DNA of 32,000 nt from Candidatus Heimdallarchaeota archaeon (GCA_030149205.1 JASBSB010000006.1:637119-669118); one strand, 5' to 3'; counted from the stretch's first letter, positions 9,561 to 17,808 are shown. Notes: generated from the sequence alone by a model not told the origin. Numbers and translations are program-made.

Positions 9561-11315
9561 ATGTTATTAGGAACAACATTTGGATTGTTGTTTGCAATAA
9601 TAACTGGCATCACTTTTGTCGTGTCAGCCTATACAAATTGGTCGCTAACGGTTGGAGCCGTGGTTATAAGTCCAGCAATAATAGGTCTTGTATTAGCAGC
9701 TCTTTTTTTAACCATCCAATTCTTGGTTTCACCATGGATAATGGATCTTCAGTTGTCTTGGCTCTATAAAATTCATTGGGGTAACTTAGAAGTTCTACCT
9801 CCTGAAATGGCTGAAGCACTCCAGGGTGCAATGAATAAACATGGTTTTACCCTGGCAAAGATTGGAATAATTGAGGATGAGACCCCTAATGCTTTTACCT
9901 ATGGAAGATTTACAAAAAACGCAAGAATGGTTTTTACAAGAGGAATAATCACTCTTTTAGACCCTGAAGAGCGTGTTGCAGTTCTTGAACATGAGGTAGG
10001 CCATATAGTCAACAAAGATTTCATCTTTATGACATTGGCCCAAGCAATTCCACTCTTGTTGTATATGACTTATATTACCTCAAGGGAGGCAGGAGCACAG
10101 ATGGCAAGAACATCGGATAATAACACCGCAAAGGGAATTGGTGCTGCATTTATAGGTGTCGCTGTGTTAAGTTTTATTTTTTACTGGTTGTCTGAATATT
10201 TTGTTTACCTCTTATCTCGAACAAGAGAATACCTTGCAGATCATTTCAGTGTTTTTAACACGAACAATCCGAATGCACTCTCCTCTGCTCTCGTGAAAGT
10301 TGCATATGGATTGGTTCTTGCTGATGCAAATATCAAAAGAAGATTGAATGAAACTAAAGGTGATTCAAAGGAAAATAAAAAAGAAATCACACAGATGAAA
10401 CGTAAACAAAACTTTTGGAAGGGAATGAAGGCCATGGGATTGGCTGATTCTAATACTGCAAGTAGCCTCGTAATGCAGGCATATGCTCGTTCACCAGAAG
10501 TTTCAGCCGATGCTGTTGCTGCTGCAGCTACCTGGGATTTAAGTACACCTTGGGCAAAGGTTGTGGAATTAACTAGCACACATCCATTGACCGGAAAGAG
10601 GCTTGTAAATATTGATTCACTTGCAATTGAGCTTAATCTCCCTCAAAAATATCCTGCCTTAGGGTCTGTAAAACCAGAAGAATCTTTGTGGGATGATTTT
10701 CTAATTGATATCTTTGTAATGTTTGCATCCTCGATTCTCTCATTAATTTTACTAGCAGGGATAGGAGCATTATCAACATTCTTCACCATTGGAAACCCAT
10801 TCATTGGAGCAGGCGTGGGTGTGATTATTTTTACATTCCTGTACTATTGGAAGACGAACCTAACCTACCCTAACCTGAAAAATTGGGATAACCCTTCTGT
10901 CTCCAAGAACACTGTCTTTGAGGCTGTTAGTTCAGTAGAAAGAGATGGATACATAAAAGCGTCACCAGTGAGATCTAAACCAATTGTCCTTGAAGGAGTA
11001 ATTATTGGAAAAGGAAATCCTGGGTATATGTTTTCTGAGGATTTTGTTATCCGTGATGAATCTGGCATTATGAAACTTGACATACGATCGATTTTAGGAG
11101 GACTTGGTAATTTTATCAGCTCATTCAAAGTTGGATCATACATCGAGCAGAAAGCCAGAGTAGTAGGATGGTACCAGAGATCCATGATGCCTTATGTTAT
11201 AGTCAACAAAGTCTACCTAGAGGATGGAAGAGTTGTTAAAATAAGACAAAGAGGATTACATCAATTCTATGTAGGATTATTACTCGCAATTGGCTTAGTT
11301 TTATTAGTATTATAA
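9561..11315 (+). CDS. htpX: HtpX-family (M48) membrane zinc metalloprotease, long form with C-terminal OB-fold-like extension
   Basis: PNAFTYG, zinc motif HEVGH, SRTREYLAD, ALSSALVK, STHPLTGKRL. Extra TM helices and a beta-rich C-terminal domain (IVLEGVIIG...DFVIRDESGIMKL...RVVGWYQR). Confidence 0.85.
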   Translation: MLLGTTFGLLFAIITGITFVVSAYTNWSLTVGAVVISPAIIGLVLAALFLTIQFLVSPWIMDLQLSWLYKIHWGNLEVLPPEMAEALQGAMNKHGFTLAKIGIIEDETPNAFTYGRFTKNARMVFTRGIITLLDPEERVAVLEHEVGHIVNKDFIFMTLAQAIPLLLYMTYITSREAGAQMARTSDNNTAKGIGAAFIGVAVLSFIFYWLSEYFVYLLSRTREYLADHFSVFNTNNPNALSSALVKVAYGLVLADANIKRRLNETKGDSKENKKEITQMKRKQNFWKGMKAMGLADSNTASSLVMQAYARSPEVSADAVAAAATWDLSTPWAKVVELTSTHPLTGKRLVNIDSLAIELNLPQKYPALGSVKPEESLWDDFLIDIFVMFASSILSLILLAGIGALSTFFTIGNPFIGAGVGVIIFTFLYYWKTNLTYPNLKNWDNPSVSKNTVFEAVSSVERDGYIKASPVRSKPIVLEGVIIGKGNPGYMFSEDFVIRDESGIMKLDIRSILGGLGNFISSFKVGSYIEQKARVVGWYQRSMMPYVIVNKVYLEDGRVVKIRQRGLHQFYVGLLLAIGLVLLVL

Positions 11316-11389: not shown

Positions 11390-11959
11390 TTAGTTTTTAA
11401 CTAATCTTCCCTGTAAATAGAAATCGACATAAGAACCAATTTCAATAGAGGGAAGTGTTTCATCTGGAATAATATTTTTTAGTATAACAGAATACAGTAT
11501 TGAACCAAGGAGAGATAAAATTGTTCGAAATGGTAACTCTTTCTTTAAAACACCAGTATTTTGGTACTTCGATATTATCTTTGAAAAGTGAGTGAAATAT
11601 GTTAGTGGTTCCTGTAATAATTCTTTTAAATTTGGATTATGAGAGATTTCTAAAAAAATATGAAAGAAAAAATATCCAAATTTAATAGCAGATTTCTGAT
11701 AAACCAAAACTATGTTTGTCAGATCCTTCTTGACATCTCCAGAGTAATCTGGTAATTTACTAAAATGAGAATTTTTCACTGCATAAGAAATTGATTGTTT
11801 GACTAATTGGGTCTTGCTCCCAAATCTGCGAAACAGAGTGACTTCACTGATATTTGCAGATTTTGCAATTTTTTTAGTGGTTGCACCCTGATACCCACTT
11901 AATCCTATCAATTTGATAACAGAGTTAAAAACTGCTTCATCCTTAACTATTTTTGGCAC
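11390..11959 (-). CDS. TetR/AcrR-family transcriptional regulator
   Basis: N-terminal HTH GYQGATTKKIAKSANISEVTLFRRFGSKTQL; 189 aa; GTG start; divergent from the GAP/dikinase operon. Confidence 0.92.
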   Translation of the reverse strand: MPKIVKDEAVFNSVIKLIGLSGYQGATTKKIAKSANISEVTLFRRFGSKTQLVKQSISYAVKNSHFSKLPDYSGDVKKDLTNIVLVYQKSAIKFGYFFFHIFLEISHNPNLKELLQEPLTYFTHFSKIISKYQNTGVLKKELPFRTILSLLGSILYSVILKNIIPDETLPSIEIGSYVDFYLQGRLVKN

Positions 11960-11992
11960 TACCTAAACAATTGAGCGATCATTGATATAGGT

Positions 11993-12022
11993 TTTTGTTA
12001 ATGCAAGTACATGCTAACAAAA
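11993..12022. promoter_or_regulatory. Inverted repeat 1 in the tetR/gap intergenic region (candidate operator)
   Basis: TTTTGTTA(11993-12000)-ATGCAAGTACATGC-TAACAAAA(12015-12022): perfect 8-bp arms; the spacer resembles the core of the second palindrome. Confidence 0.5.
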
Positions 12023-12038
12023 GATTTTTATTTAGTTA

Positions 12039-12058
12039 ATGTAAGTAAGTACTTACAT
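12039..12058. promoter_or_regulatory. Inverted repeat 2, candidate TetR operator
   Basis: ATGTAAGT(12039-12046)-AAGT-ACTTACAT(12051-12058): perfect 8-4-8 palindrome immediately upstream of the GGAGG Shine-Dalgarno (12062-12066) of the gap-like gene. Confidence 0.7.
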
Positions 12059-12073
12059 AAAGGAGGATATTAA

Positions 12074-12745
12074 TTGGTAAATAGTCTAATTTTGCAATCC
12101 ATCGGATTAGCATTCACAGGGTTGGTTTCATTGGGGTCAATAACAATTGTTCTTCTGCTCATACTCTCTAAGGATGGTTTTTACAAGGGTCTCGGGTACA
12201 CCTTGGGTTATTTTTTAGGATATGTGTTAATTGGAAACATTTTGATCGTTTTAAGTCTGTTTCTTCCTGTAAATTTTACTAATCAAGTAAATTCGACTAT
12301 ACCCATATTCTTGTTGGCTCTAGGAACACTTCTTCTATTCTTAGGATTAAGAAATTTGAGAAGAGGGCCAAAGACATCTAAAGAGAACAAAGGATTTCTT
12401 TCTTCCTTAGATGGATTTAATTCTAGAAAGTCTTTCATGTTAGGAGCTGCAATCACTGTGATCAATGTTAAAAACCTTGCACTTTATATGACAGCAATGT
12501 CTGGGATAATCCTAGTTCAGGTTGATATACTTGACAAAATTTTACTAACATTCCTCATTTCAATCATCTTTTGTATTGGTGTGTTTTTTCCAGTATTGAT
12601 CTATCTAATGTTTCCAGAAAGTTCTGAAGTTAAACTTACTAGCTTTAAGGCATATTTAGATACACATAGTCACAAACTATCTATTTACCTTCCAATCTTC
12701 TTCTCTTTCTTGCTTATATTTAAAGGAGTTACAGATCTACTATGA
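12074..12745 (+). CDS. GAP/Sap-family (LysE translocator superfamily) integral membrane export protein
   Basis: 223 aa, ~6 TM helices, N-terminal SLGSITIVLLLILS, central INVKNLAL (NPKN-like) motif. TTG start with SD GGAGG. ATGA overlap with the next gene. Confidence 0.7.
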   Translation: MVNSLILQSIGLAFTGLVSLGSITIVLLLILSKDGFYKGLGYTLGYFLGYVLIGNILIVLSLFLPVNFTNQVNSTIPIFLLALGTLLLFLGLRNLRRGPKTSKENKGFLSSLDGFNSRKSFMLGAAITVINVKNLALYMTAMSGIILVQVDILDKILLTFLISIIFCIGVFFPVLIYLMFPESSEVKLTSFKAYLDTHSHKLSIYLPIFFSFLLIFKGVTDLL

Positions 12746-15408
12746 CAACAAAGTTACCATTAGTTTTAGATTTCGACCAAATCAGGTCAAAAGATTTACC
12801 ACTCGTAGGTGGAAAAGGAGCAAATTTGGGAGAAATGACTTACGCGGGATTTCCTGTTCCACCGGGTTTCTGCATAACAACCCTAGCTTACGATAATTTC
12901 ATAGCAACCTCTGATCAATCCACTAGGATCTTTGATATTCTTAGTGACCTCTCTGTAGATAATTTAGATAAAATTAGAGAGGCAGGAAAAGAGGTTCGTG
13001 ATTTGCTTAATATGGCATCATTTAGAGAAGAATTGCAATCTCCATTGCTAGAAGCCTGGAGGAGGTTAGGTTCTGAGCAAGTTTATGCCATACGATCAAG
13101 TGCAACAGCAGAGGATCTCCCAAATGCATCATTTGCAGGACAACAAGATACGTACCTAAATGTCATTGGTCAAGAACAGTTTTTGGAGTCAGTTAAAAAA
13201 TGCTGGATATCTTTATTTACAGATAGAGCAATACTTTATCGAATAAAAAACAATTTTCCCCATGATAAGGTCAAATTAAGTGTGGTTGTACAAAAGATGA
13301 TAAAATCCGAAAGATCGGGGATAATGTTCACTGCAAACCCTGTGACGGGGCATCGTCACACAATTCTGATTAATGCTAGCTATGGGCTTGGAGAAGCACT
13401 TGTGAGTGGTTTGGTTAATCCGGATACTTACGAGTTTGATAAAAGAAAAACTCAGATTGTTGATGTGAAAATTTCCGACAAGAAGATTGGAATCTACCCC
13501 CTTAAAGATGGGGGAACGAAAGAGGTAGAACTATCTGAGGAGTTGCGAAACAAGCAGGTGTTATCTGATGAGGAAATATTACAACTGGGATTGCTTGGTG
13601 TAAAAATAGAAGAATATTATAAGTCCCCCCAGGACATTGAATGGGCATCTGAATCGCAAAATTTGTACATTGTACAATCTAGGCCGATCACATCCCTATA
13701 TCCTATAGATGGGTTAAAATACCCTGAAGGCACTCTGGGGATATTTTTTAGCTTTGGACATCAGCAAAACATGCTCCGAGCCATGACCCCAATGAGTTTG
13801 TCTTCAATCACCACCTTTCTTCCAGTGGGTCATACTGAAAGCAAATATGAATCAGATTATGTCAGAATTAGTGGAGATAGGGCATTTTTAGATATAACAA
13901 CAATGCTTAGACACCGAATTTTAAAGAAGATTGTATTGAGGGTGACTGGGCAAATGGATGCATTAGCCCCAAAATCTATCCAGATTCTTATGAAAAGACC
14001 AGAATTTAAAAAATCTCCTCGAGCAAAAATTCCAATTTCTACAGCCTTTCGAGGAATAAAACTTATCTTAAGAGTGGTCAACGATATTTTCAGGAAAAAC
14101 CTCTCAGGGTTTGTTGATAAAACCAATAGGGATATAGACATATTCCTCGATGAAGTTAGAGAAGAGATGAAAGGCTTACAGCCAGATATTAACCTTCTAA
14201 ATTTGTGTGAGCAATATTTACAGAAAACACCCTCTTTCATGTTGAATTTTGTTCCTGAAGCATTTGCTGGGATTGCGTCAACTAAGATCCTTGAGGGATA
14301 TAGCAGGAAATGGTTAGATGACGCTACAGCAGGAAATATCAGTCTTGGGATAAGGGGTAATGTGGTTAATGAAATGAATTATGCAATTGGAGATCTTGCT
14401 GATTTGCTTCGTGAATCACCCGAACTTTCGCGTTCAATTGAGACCCTCAATAATGACCCTTTTGATTGGTTAAATTCATTAGAATCCATCCAAGGAGGTC
14501 ATGAGTTTCTAAATGCATGGCAAGAATTTATAGAAAGCTATGGTGCTCGTGGCCCTTCTGAACTAGATATATATAAGCCTAGATGGTGGGAAGATCCTCT
14601 TCCAGTATTGAATGTGATTCGAGAATATATGAAAAAAGAGAAGGGAAGCCACAGAAAACAGGAAGCAGAATTTATTCAATTACGAGAACAGGCATTTGAT
14701 GAATTACTACTAAAAGCATCTAAGGGAATTCGAGGGAGATTTCGAAGAAGAAGGTATAGAAGACTCTATTTTGTAATGACTGAGGTTGGAGGAATGAGGG
14801 AACACCATAAATTTATGATGATCCGTTTAATTTCGTTAGTGAAAAAATCACTTCTTCGAATTGGAAATAGCCTTGTAGAATCAGGAAAATTAAAGGAAAT
14901 CGACGATCTTTGGTTTTTAAAATGGGGAGAATTGGTTCAGGTACTTGAAGGTTCAACTATTGATCGAAATGAAGAAATTAAGCAGAGAAAAATAGATTAC
15001 AACAGGTATCAAAGCTTGATTCCACCAGCTATCATTAGTAGTGACGGAGAATCACCAGAAGTTAACTATGAAATTGCAGATGCCCCTGAAGGTGCATTAC
15101 TTGGAAATCCTGTTTCTGGAGGAGTAATTGAAGGGATAGCTCACGTCATTAGAGATCCAACAACAGAATCACTGAAAATGGATGAGGTTTTGGTTGCTGA
15201 ATTCACCGACCCGGGTTGGACTCCATTATTTATCAATGCAAAAGGTTTGATACTTGAAATTGGTGGTGCTTTAACCCACGGTGCCGTAGTTGCAAGGGAG
15301 TATGGCATACCTGCTGTAGTAGGTGTAAAGAATGCAACGTCCCTCATTAAAACAGGACAAAAGGTTCGAGTGGATGGAAATACAGGAATAGTTGAAATTT
15401 TGGAATAA
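12742..15408 (+). CDS. Rifampin phosphotransferase (RPH)-like PEP-utilizing dikinase
   Basis: N-terminal ATP-grasp domain (VGGKGANLG, AIRSSATAEDLPNASFAGQQDTYLN, PQDIEW, VQSRPIT), central substrate domain with SFGHQQNM and GMREHHKF, C-terminal swivel phospho-His domain GGALTHGAVVAREYGIPAVVG (His846). It lacks the pyruvate-binding TIM barrel of true PEP synthase. Confidence 0.85.
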   Translation: MTTKLPLVLDFDQIRSKDLPLVGGKGANLGEMTYAGFPVPPGFCITTLAYDNFIATSDQSTRIFDILSDLSVDNLDKIREAGKEVRDLLNMASFREELQSPLLEAWRRLGSEQVYAIRSSATAEDLPNASFAGQQDTYLNVIGQEQFLESVKKCWISLFTDRAILYRIKNNFPHDKVKLSVVVQKMIKSERSGIMFTANPVTGHRHTILINASYGLGEALVSGLVNPDTYEFDKRKTQIVDVKISDKKIGIYPLKDGGTKEVELSEELRNKQVLSDEEILQLGLLGVKIEEYYKSPQDIEWASESQNLYIVQSRPITSLYPIDGLKYPEGTLGIFFSFGHQQNMLRAMTPMSLSSITTFLPVGHTESKYESDYVRISGDRAFLDITTMLRHRILKKIVLRVTGQMDALAPKSIQILMKRPEFKKSPRAKIPISTAFRGIKLILRVVNDIFRKNLSGFVDKTNRDIDIFLDEVREEMKGLQPDINLLNLCEQYLQKTPSFMLNFVPEAFAGIASTKILEGYSRKWLDDATAGNISLGIRGNVVNEMNYAIGDLADLLRESPELSRSIETLNNDPFDWLNSLESIQGGHEFLNAWQEFIESYGARGPSELDIYKPRWWEDPLPVLNVIREYMKKEKGSHRKQEAEFIQLREQAFDELLLKASKGIRGRFRRRRYRRLYFVMTEVGGMREHHKFMMIRLISLVKKSLLRIGNSLVESGKLKEIDDLWFLKWGELVQVLEGSTIDRNEEIKQRKIDYNRYQSLIPPAIISSDGESPEVNYEIADAPEGALLGNPVSGGVIEGIAHVIRDPTTESLKMDEVLVAEFTDPGWTPLFINAKGLILEIGGALTHGAVVAREYGIPAVVGVKNATSLIKTGQKVRVDGNTGIVEILE

Positions 15409-15549: not shown

Positions 15550-17808
15550 ATGGGCAAGTTTGTGGATTTTCTAATGAACCTCAGCCAAAAATGGATTTTC
15601 TGGAAAATACAGGTCAAAGTTCAATACTGGTTGAATACTCCACTTAAAATCAGATGGTGGGAGGAACTTAAACTCAAAGGTCCTATTAAAATAAATTCAA
15701 ATGAGACTATAGAATTTAGAGATGGAACAGTTTTATCTACAGTCTACAAACAGGATGTACTAAAATTACAATTGTCAAAGACAGAAAATCCACCTTTGTT
15801 AGTCTATTCATTTTTGGAAACGTTAAATCTCGCTGAAATCAAACACAATTCTGTTTCACAAATATTTAAGGAGGAAAGAAAGGGTAGAGACTTAAAATTT
15901 GAAATACAACAGACAGAGGAACAAATTCTTCTAGTAAACAGATATCAATCAATAAACTTGAGAATAGAAAAAACCAATAGATACACCAAGCTGATCTTTT
16001 CATTTGATTTCAATAGGGTATTTGGTTTAGGAGACAAAATACAAGATTTAAAAAGAAAGGGGGAATTTACCTTTTGGAACCTTGATAATCCACACTATAA
16101 TGACATGACAGATAACCTTTACCAAAGCCACCCTAATGCTATTATTCAATCACCTGAGACATGGATAAATCTCATTGTTGATTACCCTGGCTATCAAAAG
16201 TGGACAATTAACTCTGACAGTATTCAAATTATCATTCAATCAAGAGATTTCACAGTCTATCTTTCAGCTGCTCTGGAACTGAAATCCCTGTACCAAAAAA
16301 TGACAACTATTGTTGGAACATTTGATTTACCACCAGTATGGGCAATAGGTTATCAACAGTCCCGCTGGAGCTATCCAGATCATAACAGTATTGTCGAACT
16401 TGATAAAAAATTTGAAGAACACAATATTCCTTGTGATGTATTTTATCTCGATATTGATTATATGGATAGTTATAAATGCTTTACCATAAACAGAGACAAT
16501 TTTCCGGACTTAAGAAACCTGTCCCTAAAAATAGAACCGAGAAAGATTGTGACGATAATTGATCCTGGAATTAAGAAAGAAGAGGGGTATGAGATATATG
16601 AAACAGGTGTTTCAAAGGGATACTTCCTCAGACAAAAGAAGGATGGATACTATTCTGGGGTGGTATGGCCTGGAATTTGTAACTTTCCAGATTTTTTGGA
16701 CGATGGATTACTTGATTGGTGGTTTAATAATAATTTAATTTTACTTAATCAAGGAGTAGCAGGAATTTGGAACGATATGAATGAACCATCCATATTCTCA
16801 ATGAGAAGAACTTTCCCTAGCGATGTATCTCATACAGTGAAAAACATCTCCCACCAAAAGGTTCACAACATCTATGGATTGATGATGTCGAGGGCAACCA
16901 ACCTTGCTATAAGGAAAGCAAGTAAGAATCGTCCATTTGTGCTTACTCGATCATCATACCTTGGAGGGCAGAATTTTGCATGGATGTGGACTGGGGACAA
17001 CTCTTCATCATGGGATCACCTGAGATGGAGTGTCAAACAAATCATCTCAATGAATTTAACTGGTTACGTGTTATGTGGGGCAGATGTTGGTGGGTTTTCA
17101 GGAAATTGTAATTCAAAGCTTCTTCAAAGATGGACACAGCTTGGTGTTTTCTACCCGTTCTTTAGAAATCATTCAGCTCTTGGAACAATTGCACAAGAAC
17201 CTTGGAAGTTTGATAATACAACCCTCCAAATAACTAAAAAAGCAATAGAACTAAGATATGAACTGGCTTTTTACATTTACACCTGTTTTTATCTGGCTCA
17301 ACTAGGAGTTGAACCTATCATTCAGCCATTATTTATGCAGTATTCGACCACAGAATGTTTTGACCCTGAATTTTGTGAAACACAGTTTTTCTTCGGTTCT
17401 AACCTGTTAATTACTCCATTATTGAGTGATGAAAACAATAGAAGGGTGTACTTACCTCCAGGAATGTGGTATGATTATTATACTGGACAAAAACTTGAAG
17501 GTGGACAAATTATGGATATAACTGTTCAGGATGATCAAATTCCAATTTATATAAGGGAAAACACTGTATTACCTATTTCAACTAATATTGGAAGAACCAT
17601 GGAAGAGACATTGAAAAATGATTTTACAATTAGATTGTTTGGTAACAATCCTAAAGGAATGATATATTTTGATGGACTGAATCATCAAAACCTTTCTGAG
17701 TATTGCCTTGTTCAGTTTAAGAACCTCGAGTTTGAATTACTGAACTTTGGATTCACATTAAACAAAACTGGAGAAAATAGTTTCAAATTTGAAAAATCCA
17801 AAAATTGA
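15550..17808 (+). CDS. Glycoside hydrolase family 31 alpha-glucosidase-like enzyme
   Basis: GYQQSRWSY, YLDIDYMD, nucleophile motif GIWNDMNEP, HNIYGLMM, WTGDN acid/base motif, GADVGGF, RWTQLG..YPFFRNH. Confidence 0.92.
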   Translation: MGKFVDFLMNLSQKWIFWKIQVKVQYWLNTPLKIRWWEELKLKGPIKINSNETIEFRDGTVLSTVYKQDVLKLQLSKTENPPLLVYSFLETLNLAEIKHNSVSQIFKEERKGRDLKFEIQQTEEQILLVNRYQSINLRIEKTNRYTKLIFSFDFNRVFGLGDKIQDLKRKGEFTFWNLDNPHYNDMTDNLYQSHPNAIIQSPETWINLIVDYPGYQKWTINSDSIQIIIQSRDFTVYLSAALELKSLYQKMTTIVGTFDLPPVWAIGYQQSRWSYPDHNSIVELDKKFEEHNIPCDVFYLDIDYMDSYKCFTINRDNFPDLRNLSLKIEPRKIVTIIDPGIKKEEGYEIYETGVSKGYFLRQKKDGYYSGVVWPGICNFPDFLDDGLLDWWFNNNLILLNQGVAGIWNDMNEPSIFSMRRTFPSDVSHTVKNISHQKVHNIYGLMMSRATNLAIRKASKNRPFVLTRSSYLGGQNFAWMWTGDNSSSWDHLRWSVKQIISMNLTGYVLCGADVGGFSGNCNSKLLQRWTQLGVFYPFFRNHSALGTIAQEPWKFDNTTLQITKKAIELRYELAFYIYTCFYLAQLGVEPIIQPLFMQYSTTECFDPEFCETQFFFGSNLLITPLLSDENNRRVYLPPGMWYDYYTGQKLEGGQIMDITVQDDQIPIYIRENTVLPISTNIGRTMEETLKNDFTIRLFGNNPKGMIYFDGLNHQNLSEYCLVQFKNLEFELLNFGFTLNKTGENSFKFEKSKN

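Follow-up and report, generated by a model that had tools for sequence, protein, structure and literature searches.

A tetR-linked membrane protein and RPH-like dikinase in a Heimdallarchaeota genome: a candidate cassette for phosphorylation and export of small molecules

A conserved three-gene cassette was found in a 32,000-nt stretch of the genome of a Candidatus Heimdallarchaeota archaeon (GCA_030149205.1, JASBSB010000006.1:637119-669118), which is referred to below as the window. At positions 11,390 to 15,408 it comprises a divergently oriented tetR-family gene, a gene for a membrane protein of the SfLAP (Gap/Sap) family and a gene for a dikinase related to rifampin phosphotransferase (RPH). 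The triplet recurs in other genomes together with a putative operator, and its dikinase has kept the phosphotransfer site of RPH while the residues which contact rifampin are largely replaced. Based on these comparisons, we consider it reasonably probable that the three genes constitute a self-contained, horizontally mobile and inducible detoxification cassette of bacterial origin, the substrate of which would be a lipophilic, hydroxylated exogenous compound and not a rifamycin. A reading in which a non-rifamycin lipophilic ligand is sensed, phosphorylated and exported had been proposed before from the nucleotide sequence only (the sequence-only reading). It is supported by the in silico checks described here; the function itself is a prediction.

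The elements of the cassette are, with their positions in the window:

11390-11959, minus strand: tetR-family repressor gene, 189 aa, GTG start; PF00440 (TetR_N), E = 2.9e-10
12002-12019, no strand assigned: O1, predicted distal, degenerate operator on the tetR side, TGCAAGTACATGCTAACA (TGCAAGT-ACAT-GCTAACA, two mismatches to TGTWAGT-N4-ACTWACA)
12025-12034, plus strand: A/T-rich, TATA-like box between O1 and O2, TTTTTATTTA, read from the sequence; putative archaeal promoter of the SfLAP-dikinase operon
12040-12057, no strand assigned: O2, predicted proximal operator, a perfect 18-bp site (TGTAAGT-AAGT-ACTTACA)
12061-12066, plus strand: Shine-Dalgarno-like AGGAGG, read from the sequence, 8 nt ahead of the SfLAP TTG start
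12074-12745, plus strand: gene for the SfLAP/Gap-Sap membrane protein (PF11139; LysE superfamily), 223 aa, TTG start
12742-15408, plus strand: gene for the RPH-like dikinase, 888 aa, ATG start
12742-13698, plus strand: dikinase ATP-grasp domain (aa 1-319); PPDK_N at residues 20-318, E = 1e-105
13699-15102, plus strand: dikinase central substrate-binding domain (aa 320-787), with H340-Q341-Q342 and R686-E687-K690
15103-15408, plus strand: dikinase swivel phosphohistidine domain (aa 788-888); PF00391 at residues 814-882, E = 4.6e-24; phospho-His H846

The divergent tetR gene, the two palindromes and the Gap/Sap gene lie where the sequence-only reading had placed them, and the open reading frames (ORFs) and Pfam matches bear out the ATGA coupling and the 888-aa enzyme with RPH domain order that it had also described. 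The tetR product reached 40.2 bits with PF00440 in a Pfam scan (cut-off 24) and starts with MPK, like its bacterial homologues. In the same scan the membrane protein scored 77.8 bits with PF11139 (cut-off 35). It has six transmembrane helices and a basic central loop at approximately residues 98-116, and the features by which Gap/Sap proteins are recognised (Pfam gathering score, six helices that span the membrane and, between helices 3 and 4, a hydrophilic loop) are all present. Members of this family also match DsbD_2, LysE and TerC. An AlphaFold2 model (pLDDT 77) consists of helices and the basic loop at 98-116, the latter with low confidence. Comparison of this model with the PDB by Foldseek gave no match at E <= 0.001, and thus there is no solved relative that could support or orient a transport mechanism.

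The start codon of the dikinase gene lies within the stop of the SfLAP gene (ATGA, 12742-12745). The phospho-His of the dikinase is located in a C-terminal swivel domain and a phosphoenolpyruvate (PEP)/pyruvate TIM barrel (PF02896) was not found in the Pfam scan; therefore, its domain order is that of RPH and not that of PEP synthase. A precomputed match to PF27448 (Rph_4th) exists for the identical protein P0001 and for all homologues listed. PEP synthase PpsA, whose name is given to the protein by automatic annotation, has homologous ATP-grasp and swivel domains, but it contains the TIM barrel and its His domain is central. With the PEP synthase model TIGR01418, the dikinase reached 445.5 bits (cut-off 739.75) in two separate stretches, the best one at residues 7-318. 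Since this model failed and the TIM barrel is missing, we rejected the name "phosphoenolpyruvate synthase", which was already called a misnomer for this family (PMC4844700).

The linkage of the three genes, on which the sequence-only reading had hinged, is conserved across many genomes and phyla. Among the closest SfLAP homologues (n = 8), four were looked up in their genomic context, and all four are encoded directly upstream of an RPH-like dikinase, in three cases with a TetR alongside. A genome scan with an SfLAP alignment yielded 42 loci, and 47 loci in all, the window included, were compared. The 42 loci are mostly from Chloroflexota (Anaerolineae, Promineifilaceae, Caldilineae and Ardenticatenaceae), the rest from Acidimicrobiales, another metagenome-assembled genome (MAG) of Actinomycetota, a Bacteroidetes MAG, three Spirochaetota, several Myxococcota and two archaeal congeners. 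A dikinase gene is found at or near the SfLAP stop codon in about 30 of them, and the loci lacking an adjacent dikinase mostly are at contig edges or contain the most distant SfLAPs (Myxococcota). The linked loci are carried mostly by Chloroflexota, by some Actinomycetota, Bacteroidota and Spirochaetota, and by five archaeal genomes. The two genes share a 4-nt overlap (ATGA or GTGA) in 29 of the 47 loci. When the dikinase was used as the starting point, two further top matches, P0094 (from a Heimdallarchaeota MAG) and P0008, were found to carry the same triplet, and in a sample of 201 genomes from the class of one Chloroflexota carrier, all three genomes with a clade-level dikinase have it adjacent to SfLAP. 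According to ORF clustering, only SfLAP, dikinase and TetR recur among the 47 loci, while the other neighbours vary. In about 19 other loci, a TetR with 35-45% identity to that of the window is encoded upstream of SfLAP, in divergent orientation. A tblastn search of the PLSDB plasmids revealed no clade-level homologue of the dikinase; all matches were at most 39% identical, and thus there is no evidence of plasmid carriage. In the literature searched, we found no description of the SfLAP-dikinase pairing or of its conserved repressor and operator.

The variable neighbourhoods bear on the question whether the cassette could serve catabolism. In such a module, a phenolic or otherwise hydroxylated compound would be taken up through SfLAP, and phosphorylation by the dikinase would serve to trap or activate it, similarly to phenylphosphate synthase, CreHI and HpeHI. 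Catabolic operons are indeed often governed by TetR regulators. Furthermore, characterised proteins related to RPH in its substrate and swivel domains are known to phosphorylate phenolics at the start of their catabolism (PMC12167813, PMC12624787). We nevertheless regard this explanation as very unlikely, because no catabolic, biosynthetic, carboxylase, phosphatase or MmpL gene was found to recur beside the cassette in the 47 loci. In addition, the known enzymes differ from the one described here: PpsAB, CreHI, HpeHI and MarK share with it the swivel-His mechanism, a homologous substrate domain and the phosphorylation of a hydroxyl group of a small hydrophobic molecule, but they consist of two polypeptides, are approximately 20% identical to RPH and act inside catabolic pathways (PMC12167813), whereas the window enzyme is a single 888-aa chain and far closer to RPH. 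Finally, members of the LysE superfamily are mainly exporters (PMC3318749).

A second form of the cassette was observed at L038:7001-10265, at L039:3117-7050 and on one JGI contig. It consists of a co-directional regulator gene, SfLAP and, after a gap of approximately 112-130 nt, a gene for an 827-828-aa dikinase from a very distant clade of the RPH family. On the JGI contig the regulator is a TetR; its counterpart in L039 is a 217-aa ORF to which no class was assigned. SfLAP thus partners with at least two dikinase lineages, which hints at a general partnership. In three loci from bacterial MAGs (L054, L057 and L066) the frame of the linked dikinase is interrupted, as seen from split tblastn matches or an early stop; this may reflect assembly errors in long-read MAGs or real decay.

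The intergenic region between tetR and SfLAP is 114 bp long, and the putative TetR operator DNA is TGTAAGTAAGTACTTACA. The operator consensus TGTWAGT-N4-ACTWACA was obtained by aligning tetR-SfLAP intergenic regions by eye, with the motif derived from bacterial loci. With up to two mismatches, it is present in 18 of the 47 loci, both bacterial and archaeal, at most 320 nt upstream of SfLAP, while the remaining approximately 490 kb of these loci contain nine matches, four of which adjoin a more distant tetR. This corresponds to a more than 100-fold enrichment upstream of SfLAP. The perfect motif occurs a single time in the 3.3-Mb archaeal genome. Since the motif comes from bacteria, since its perfect match in the genome is unique and since it is strongly enriched at this position, we judge that the palindromes exceed chance. 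The sole other genomic site within one mismatch (G000:C4:139771-139788, TGTTAGTATTTTCTTACA) is probably a chance match, because reversed-pattern controls gave five matches per strand at this stringency.

The palindromes are placed in a similar way in different carriers. A second site at the position equivalent to O1 exists in L036, L050, L051, L055, L057, L068, L076 and L085. With respect to the promoter elements of the bacterial loci, the first site overlaps the -35 box (TTGACT), and the second lies after the -10 box (TATnAT). The operator was retained in the five archaeal copies, and an A/T-rich, TATA-like box is located directly 5' of the proximal site. Judging from this arrangement, O2 would cover the predicted transcription start. 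An N-terminal helix-turn-helix and a palindrome near the own or divergent promoter, as is typical for TetR repressors, are both found at the tetR locus; from the behaviour of the family, binding of TetR to these operators and its response to a ligand are predicted. A PDB search with TetR gave weak matches only, which were mostly based on the helix-turn-helix and provided no clue to the ligand.

The dikinase aligns end to end with the structures 5HV1 and 5FBS of Listeria RPH (E = 1e-177), and its overall identity to this enzyme (RPH-Lm) is 37.5-37.8%. In the full-length alignment the ATP-grasp domain is 50%, the substrate domain 25% and the swivel domain 54% identical to RPH-Lm. The substrate domains of the Listeria and Streptomyces RPHs, for comparison, are 54% identical to each other. 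The ATP-site residues K25, R118, T137 and E300 are conserved. Residues K25, R118, T137, Q342, R686, E687, K690 and H846 correspond to Lys22, Arg117, Thr136, Gln337, Arg666, Glu667, Lys670 and His825 of RPH-Lm, in which the roles of the catalytic residues were established by structure and mutagenesis (PMC4844700). H340-Q341-Q342 aligns with H335-Q336-Q337, R686-E687-x-x-K690 with R666-E667 and K670, and T845-H846 with T824-H825. The correspondence of the HQQ and R-E motifs, which the sequence-only reading had pointed out, is therefore correct. Residues of the phosphotransfer site are invariant or nearly so in 35 members of the window clade, with the phospho-His present in all 35. Given the common architecture and these identical residues, the same chemistry as in RPH is expected: ATP + substrate-OH -> AMP + Pi + substrate-phosphate.

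By contrast, the rifampin contacts are largely replaced. We compared Y351, T354, P356, A357, M359, V368, L387, L478, F479, M673 and T523 of RPH. In the window enzyme Y351 is exchanged to I, T354 to F, V368 to L, L387 to T and F479 to M; L478 falls into an alignment gap, M673 is the sole contact kept, and the alignment near 356-359 is uncertain. T523 is replaced by V in 35 of 35 clade members and T354 by F, L or I across the clade, while V368, Y351 and L387 vary. In the reference RPHs, T354, T523, L478, V368, Y351 and L387 are invariant. The substrate-pocket positions of the window enzyme are still hydrophobic, though unlike those of RPH.

The window enzyme also stays below the limits by which RPHs are delimited. 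With the NCBI equivalog model for RPH (NF041857, cut-off 999 bits) it reached 711.6 bits and other clade members 690-760 bits, while the annotated RPHs of Listeria, B. cereus, Streptomyces and Aulosira reached 1448-1601 bits; thus, the window enzyme missed the cut-off by approximately 290 bits, and these RPHs exceeded it by 450-600 bits. Its identity is below the value of more than 42% to RPH-Lm that delimits the validated clade A (PMC4844700). In a dikinase tree (quick IQ-TREE, LG+C20), one clade unites the reference RPHs (SH-aLRT 100) and another one the relatives of the window enzyme (SH-aLRT 99). The enzyme thus belongs to the RPH family in the broad sense, with an RPH-type central domain, the R-E-x-x-K motif, the RPH domain order and the catalytic residues, and in agreement with the sequence-only reading it is not nested among the RPHs: equivalog score, identity, clade placement and rifampin contacts all set it apart. 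NF004878 (PRK06241.1-3) was considered as a clade-specific model and rejected. The window protein passes it with 951.9 bits (cut-off 945), but this says nothing specific, because true RPHs pass it too (970-1076 bits), and some clade members fail at 932-943 bits.

With these data at hand, the possibility that the genes are a divergent operon for true rifamycin (ansamycin) phosphorylation can be weighed. SfLAP would then export rifamycin or phospho-rifamycin, and in the archaeon the operon would be a passenger or would guard a target other than RNA polymerase. The full-length homology, the identical HQQ, R-E, K and phospho-His residues, the hydrophobic nature of the V368 and F479 replacements and the retained M673 fit with this, as does the fact that most carriers are bacteria with a rifamycin-sensitive polymerase. 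Archaeal RNA polymerase is insensitive to rifamycins, and yet the cassette is intact in five divergent archaeal genomes. According to a published prediction, homologues from clades other than A may still act on rifamycins, but a distant-clade homologue of C. difficile gave no resistance (PMC4844700), which means that homology alone is insufficient. Together with the low score with NF041857, the low identity in the substrate domain and the clade-wide replacement of T354 and T523, this makes a rifamycin kinase unlikely in our view. The rph loci that were examined in Listeria, Bacillus, Streptomyces and Aulosira are also without an SfLAP pairing.

Several other RPH-like genes came to our attention. 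The same archaeal genome encodes a second dikinase of RPH architecture (884 aa; G000:C7:374410-377025, locus L002:1465-4119), which is 33-34% identical to the window enzyme, has no SfLAP gene upstream and groups with homologues of two other Asgard genomes (G166 and G083) in a separate, long-branched clade. A haloarchaeal RPH-like gene on a Haladaptatus pallidirubidus plasmid (L080, 2358-5685) has a product with 37% identity to the window enzyme, which with 737 bits for NF041857 is also not called RPH; the start of this gene is overlapped by a co-directional TetR/AcrR gene, and SfLAP is absent. The Bacillus cereus plasmid pMRY14-0075_1 (L079, 144-4773) contains a true RPH (1481 bits for NF041857), annotated as "phosphoenolpyruvate synthase", between the genes for a macrolide glycosyltransferase and a TetR-family regulator.

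How did the cassette come into the archaeon? In a sample of 201 genomes of the archaeal phylum, SfLAP is present in three, all from one genus, and RPH-like dikinases of other clades are common. In the dikinase tree, the archaeal sequences (n = 4) group together (SH-aLRT 100), and their clade is nested within Chloroflexota at a depth of several nodes, with RPH and the other clades outside. This nested position favours a single transfer from bacteria to archaea, presumably followed by divergence, and the source was most likely a member of Chloroflexota. The trees of SfLAP and TetR are poorly resolved, with long branches for the window proteins, and are compatible with the dikinase tree. Thus, the sequence-only reading was right in placing the system in an archaeon, but it is not an archaeal invention; it is better described as a bacterial module, mostly of Chloroflexota, that was acquired by Heimdallarchaeia. 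The acquisition is not recent, since the GC content of the cassette (31-39%) is the same as that of the window. In an empty-site and synteny search, the flanking genes for an M48 peptidase and a GH31 protein had counterparts in the congeners with 29% and 47% identity, respectively, located on other contigs; genes outside of the cassette, such as the GH31 gene, are thus similarly divergent among the congeners.

The distribution also has to be considered for the idea that an endogenous lipid or metabolite is the molecule that the cassette modifies. In this case a membrane-associated product of the cell would be phosphorylated by the dikinase and then addressed to the surface by the Gap/Sap protein, comparable to sap-chp1 in sulfolipid-1 synthesis. 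This would suit the hydrophobic pocket of the dikinase. Moreover, Gap and Sap indeed act on glycolipids of the envelope, and a gene for a membrane-interface enzyme lies next to theirs (PMC3318749). However, the cassette has a patchy occurrence (3 of 201 genomes each in the samples of the Chloroflexota class and of the archaeal phylum), it is spread over phyla and domains with unrelated envelopes and fundamentally different lipids, no MmpL or biosynthetic gene is linked to it, and a repressor predicted to respond to a ligand travels along with its operator. An endogenous substrate therefore seems quite improbable to us.

For the preferred reading as an inducible detoxification cassette, the following mechanism can be proposed. 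In the absence of ligand, a TetR dimer would sit on the 18-bp palindromes, with O2 covering the predicted start just downstream of the TATA-like box. O1 adjoins the tetR promoter, and O1 and O2 together would repress both divergent transcription units. Binding of a lipophilic exogenous compound would release TetR from the operator, and SfLAP and dikinase would be made in a fixed ratio from the translationally coupled genes. As in RPH, ATP bound by the ATP-grasp domain would be attacked at its beta-phosphate by His846, yielding AMP and Pi. The swivel domain would then move to the central domain, where R686, E687, K690 and Q341-Q342 would hold the phosphoryl group in place for its transfer to a hydroxyl on the hydrophobic substrate bound there. 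Finally, the six-helix Gap/Sap protein of the LysE superfamily may expel the drug or the anionic phospho-product. We infer an exogenous, non-rifamycin substrate from the diverged pocket, the failed RPH assignment, the patchy spread across phyla and domains, and the retention in archaea.

Several points weigh against this reading. The activity, ligand and transcription of the cassette are predictions. A search for sequencing runs listed DNA data sets only, namely a sediment metagenome, which is probably the source, and a metagenome from a hydrothermal vent, and no RNA data set. Some loci have a different type of TetR or no recognisable regulator. The branches of the window proteins are long for the three genes (0.81, 1.99 and 1.5, compared to medians of 0.26, 0.26 and 0.42), which could be due to low-GC composition or to relaxed constraint. 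The homology to RPH over the full length and the hydrophobic pocket positions leave room for a rifamycin or another ansamycin. PigC/RedH are RPH-family dikinases of biosynthetic pathways, and detoxification is not the sole precedent, since PpsAB, CreHI and HpeHI, also RPH-family dikinases, serve catabolism (PMC12167813). Stogios et al. predicted that some homologues outside of clade A, including haloarchaeal ones, could act on rifamycins (PMC4844700). Those Gap/Sap proteins that were characterised act as helpers in lipid transport alongside an MmpL pump and are not known to transport by themselves (PMC3318749).

Among known systems, RPH (RPH-Lm, PDB 5HV1, 5FBS and 5FBT; NF041857) is closest to the dikinase, with the same order of ATP-grasp, central substrate and C-terminal swivel-His domains and the same ATP-site and phosphotransfer residues; it differs in T354, T523, L387, Y351 and L478, in its clade and in the missing SfLAP partner. 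In its logic, the mph(A)-mrx-mphR cluster is most similar, as it is a small mobile unit in which a kinase for an antibiotic is accompanied by a hydrophobic membrane protein and by a repressor of the TetR family that senses the drug. MphR is a TetR-family protein, and Mrx is a membrane protein. The complete mph(A) cluster gave macrolide resistance, whereas mph(A) alone did not (PMC9009942). Its proteins, however, are of families unrelated to those of the cassette: Mph(A) is an APH-type kinase using GTP or ATP directly, with no phosphohistidine, and Mrx is not a Gap/Sap protein. The gene order is different as well. The sap-chp1 operon (rv3821-rv3822) of M. tuberculosis and Gap of M. smegmatis share PF11139, the six helices and the hydrophilic central loop with the window SfLAP, and like it, sap is in an operon with an enzyme for a hydrophobic molecule, which in the case of sap-chp1 acts at the membrane (PMC3318749). 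However, the partner of sap is an acyltransferase, while the SfLAP of the window is paired with a soluble dikinase in a non-mycobacterial host, and the association of Gap/Sap with MmpL and glycolipid synthesis genes is not seen in the window-type loci.

The LysE superfamily of exporters includes the Gap/Sap proteins, which in M. tuberculosis work together with a membrane-interface enzyme (PMC3318749). It is tempting to speculate that SfLAP and dikinase are an obligate "phosphorylate-and-expel" pair, in which the kinase tags a natural product that partitions into the membrane and its LysE-superfamily partner specifically exports the tagged product. This would be an undescribed resistance mechanism, directed against a compound that harms both bacteria and archaea; such toxicity would explain why a bacterial cassette was kept by Heimdallarchaeia and its promoter rebuilt around the original operator. 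We put this forward tentatively, as a possibility that has rather the lesser chance of being correct.

The cassette is of interest for several reasons. RPH relatives are very common and routinely misnamed "phosphoenolpyruvate synthase", and to our knowledge their substrates are almost all unassigned. The diversity of RPH-family dikinases was already foreseen by Stogios et al. (PMC4844700), and the window enzyme lies within the known RPH-type small-molecule dikinases; what sets it apart is the conserved membrane partner and the repressor with its operator. These provide three experimental handles: the substrate or inducer should be recognisable as the ligand of the dedicated repressor, the 18-bp operator is defined, and the membrane partner is obligate. 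If the ligand were found, this would reveal a new kinase that inactivates an antibiotic or xenobiotic, and Gap/Sap proteins outside of mycobacteria would gain a function. In the archaeal copies, the bacterial regulator and operator were kept intact while the surrounding promoter became archaeal. Last but not least, TetR and its operator could be used as the component of a sensor.

Two genes flank the cassette. Upstream, the M48 peptidase gene (9561-11315, plus strand) encodes an unusually long protein of 584 aa, in which the Pfam match extends over residues 85-353 for a model of 186 positions, implying a large insertion. Directly downstream and outside of the conserved cassette, a gene for a 752-aa GH31 alpha-glucosidase-like protein is located (15550-17808, plus strand); it scored 416 with the MalA model (cut-off 800) and has an N-terminal extension of approximately 100 aa.

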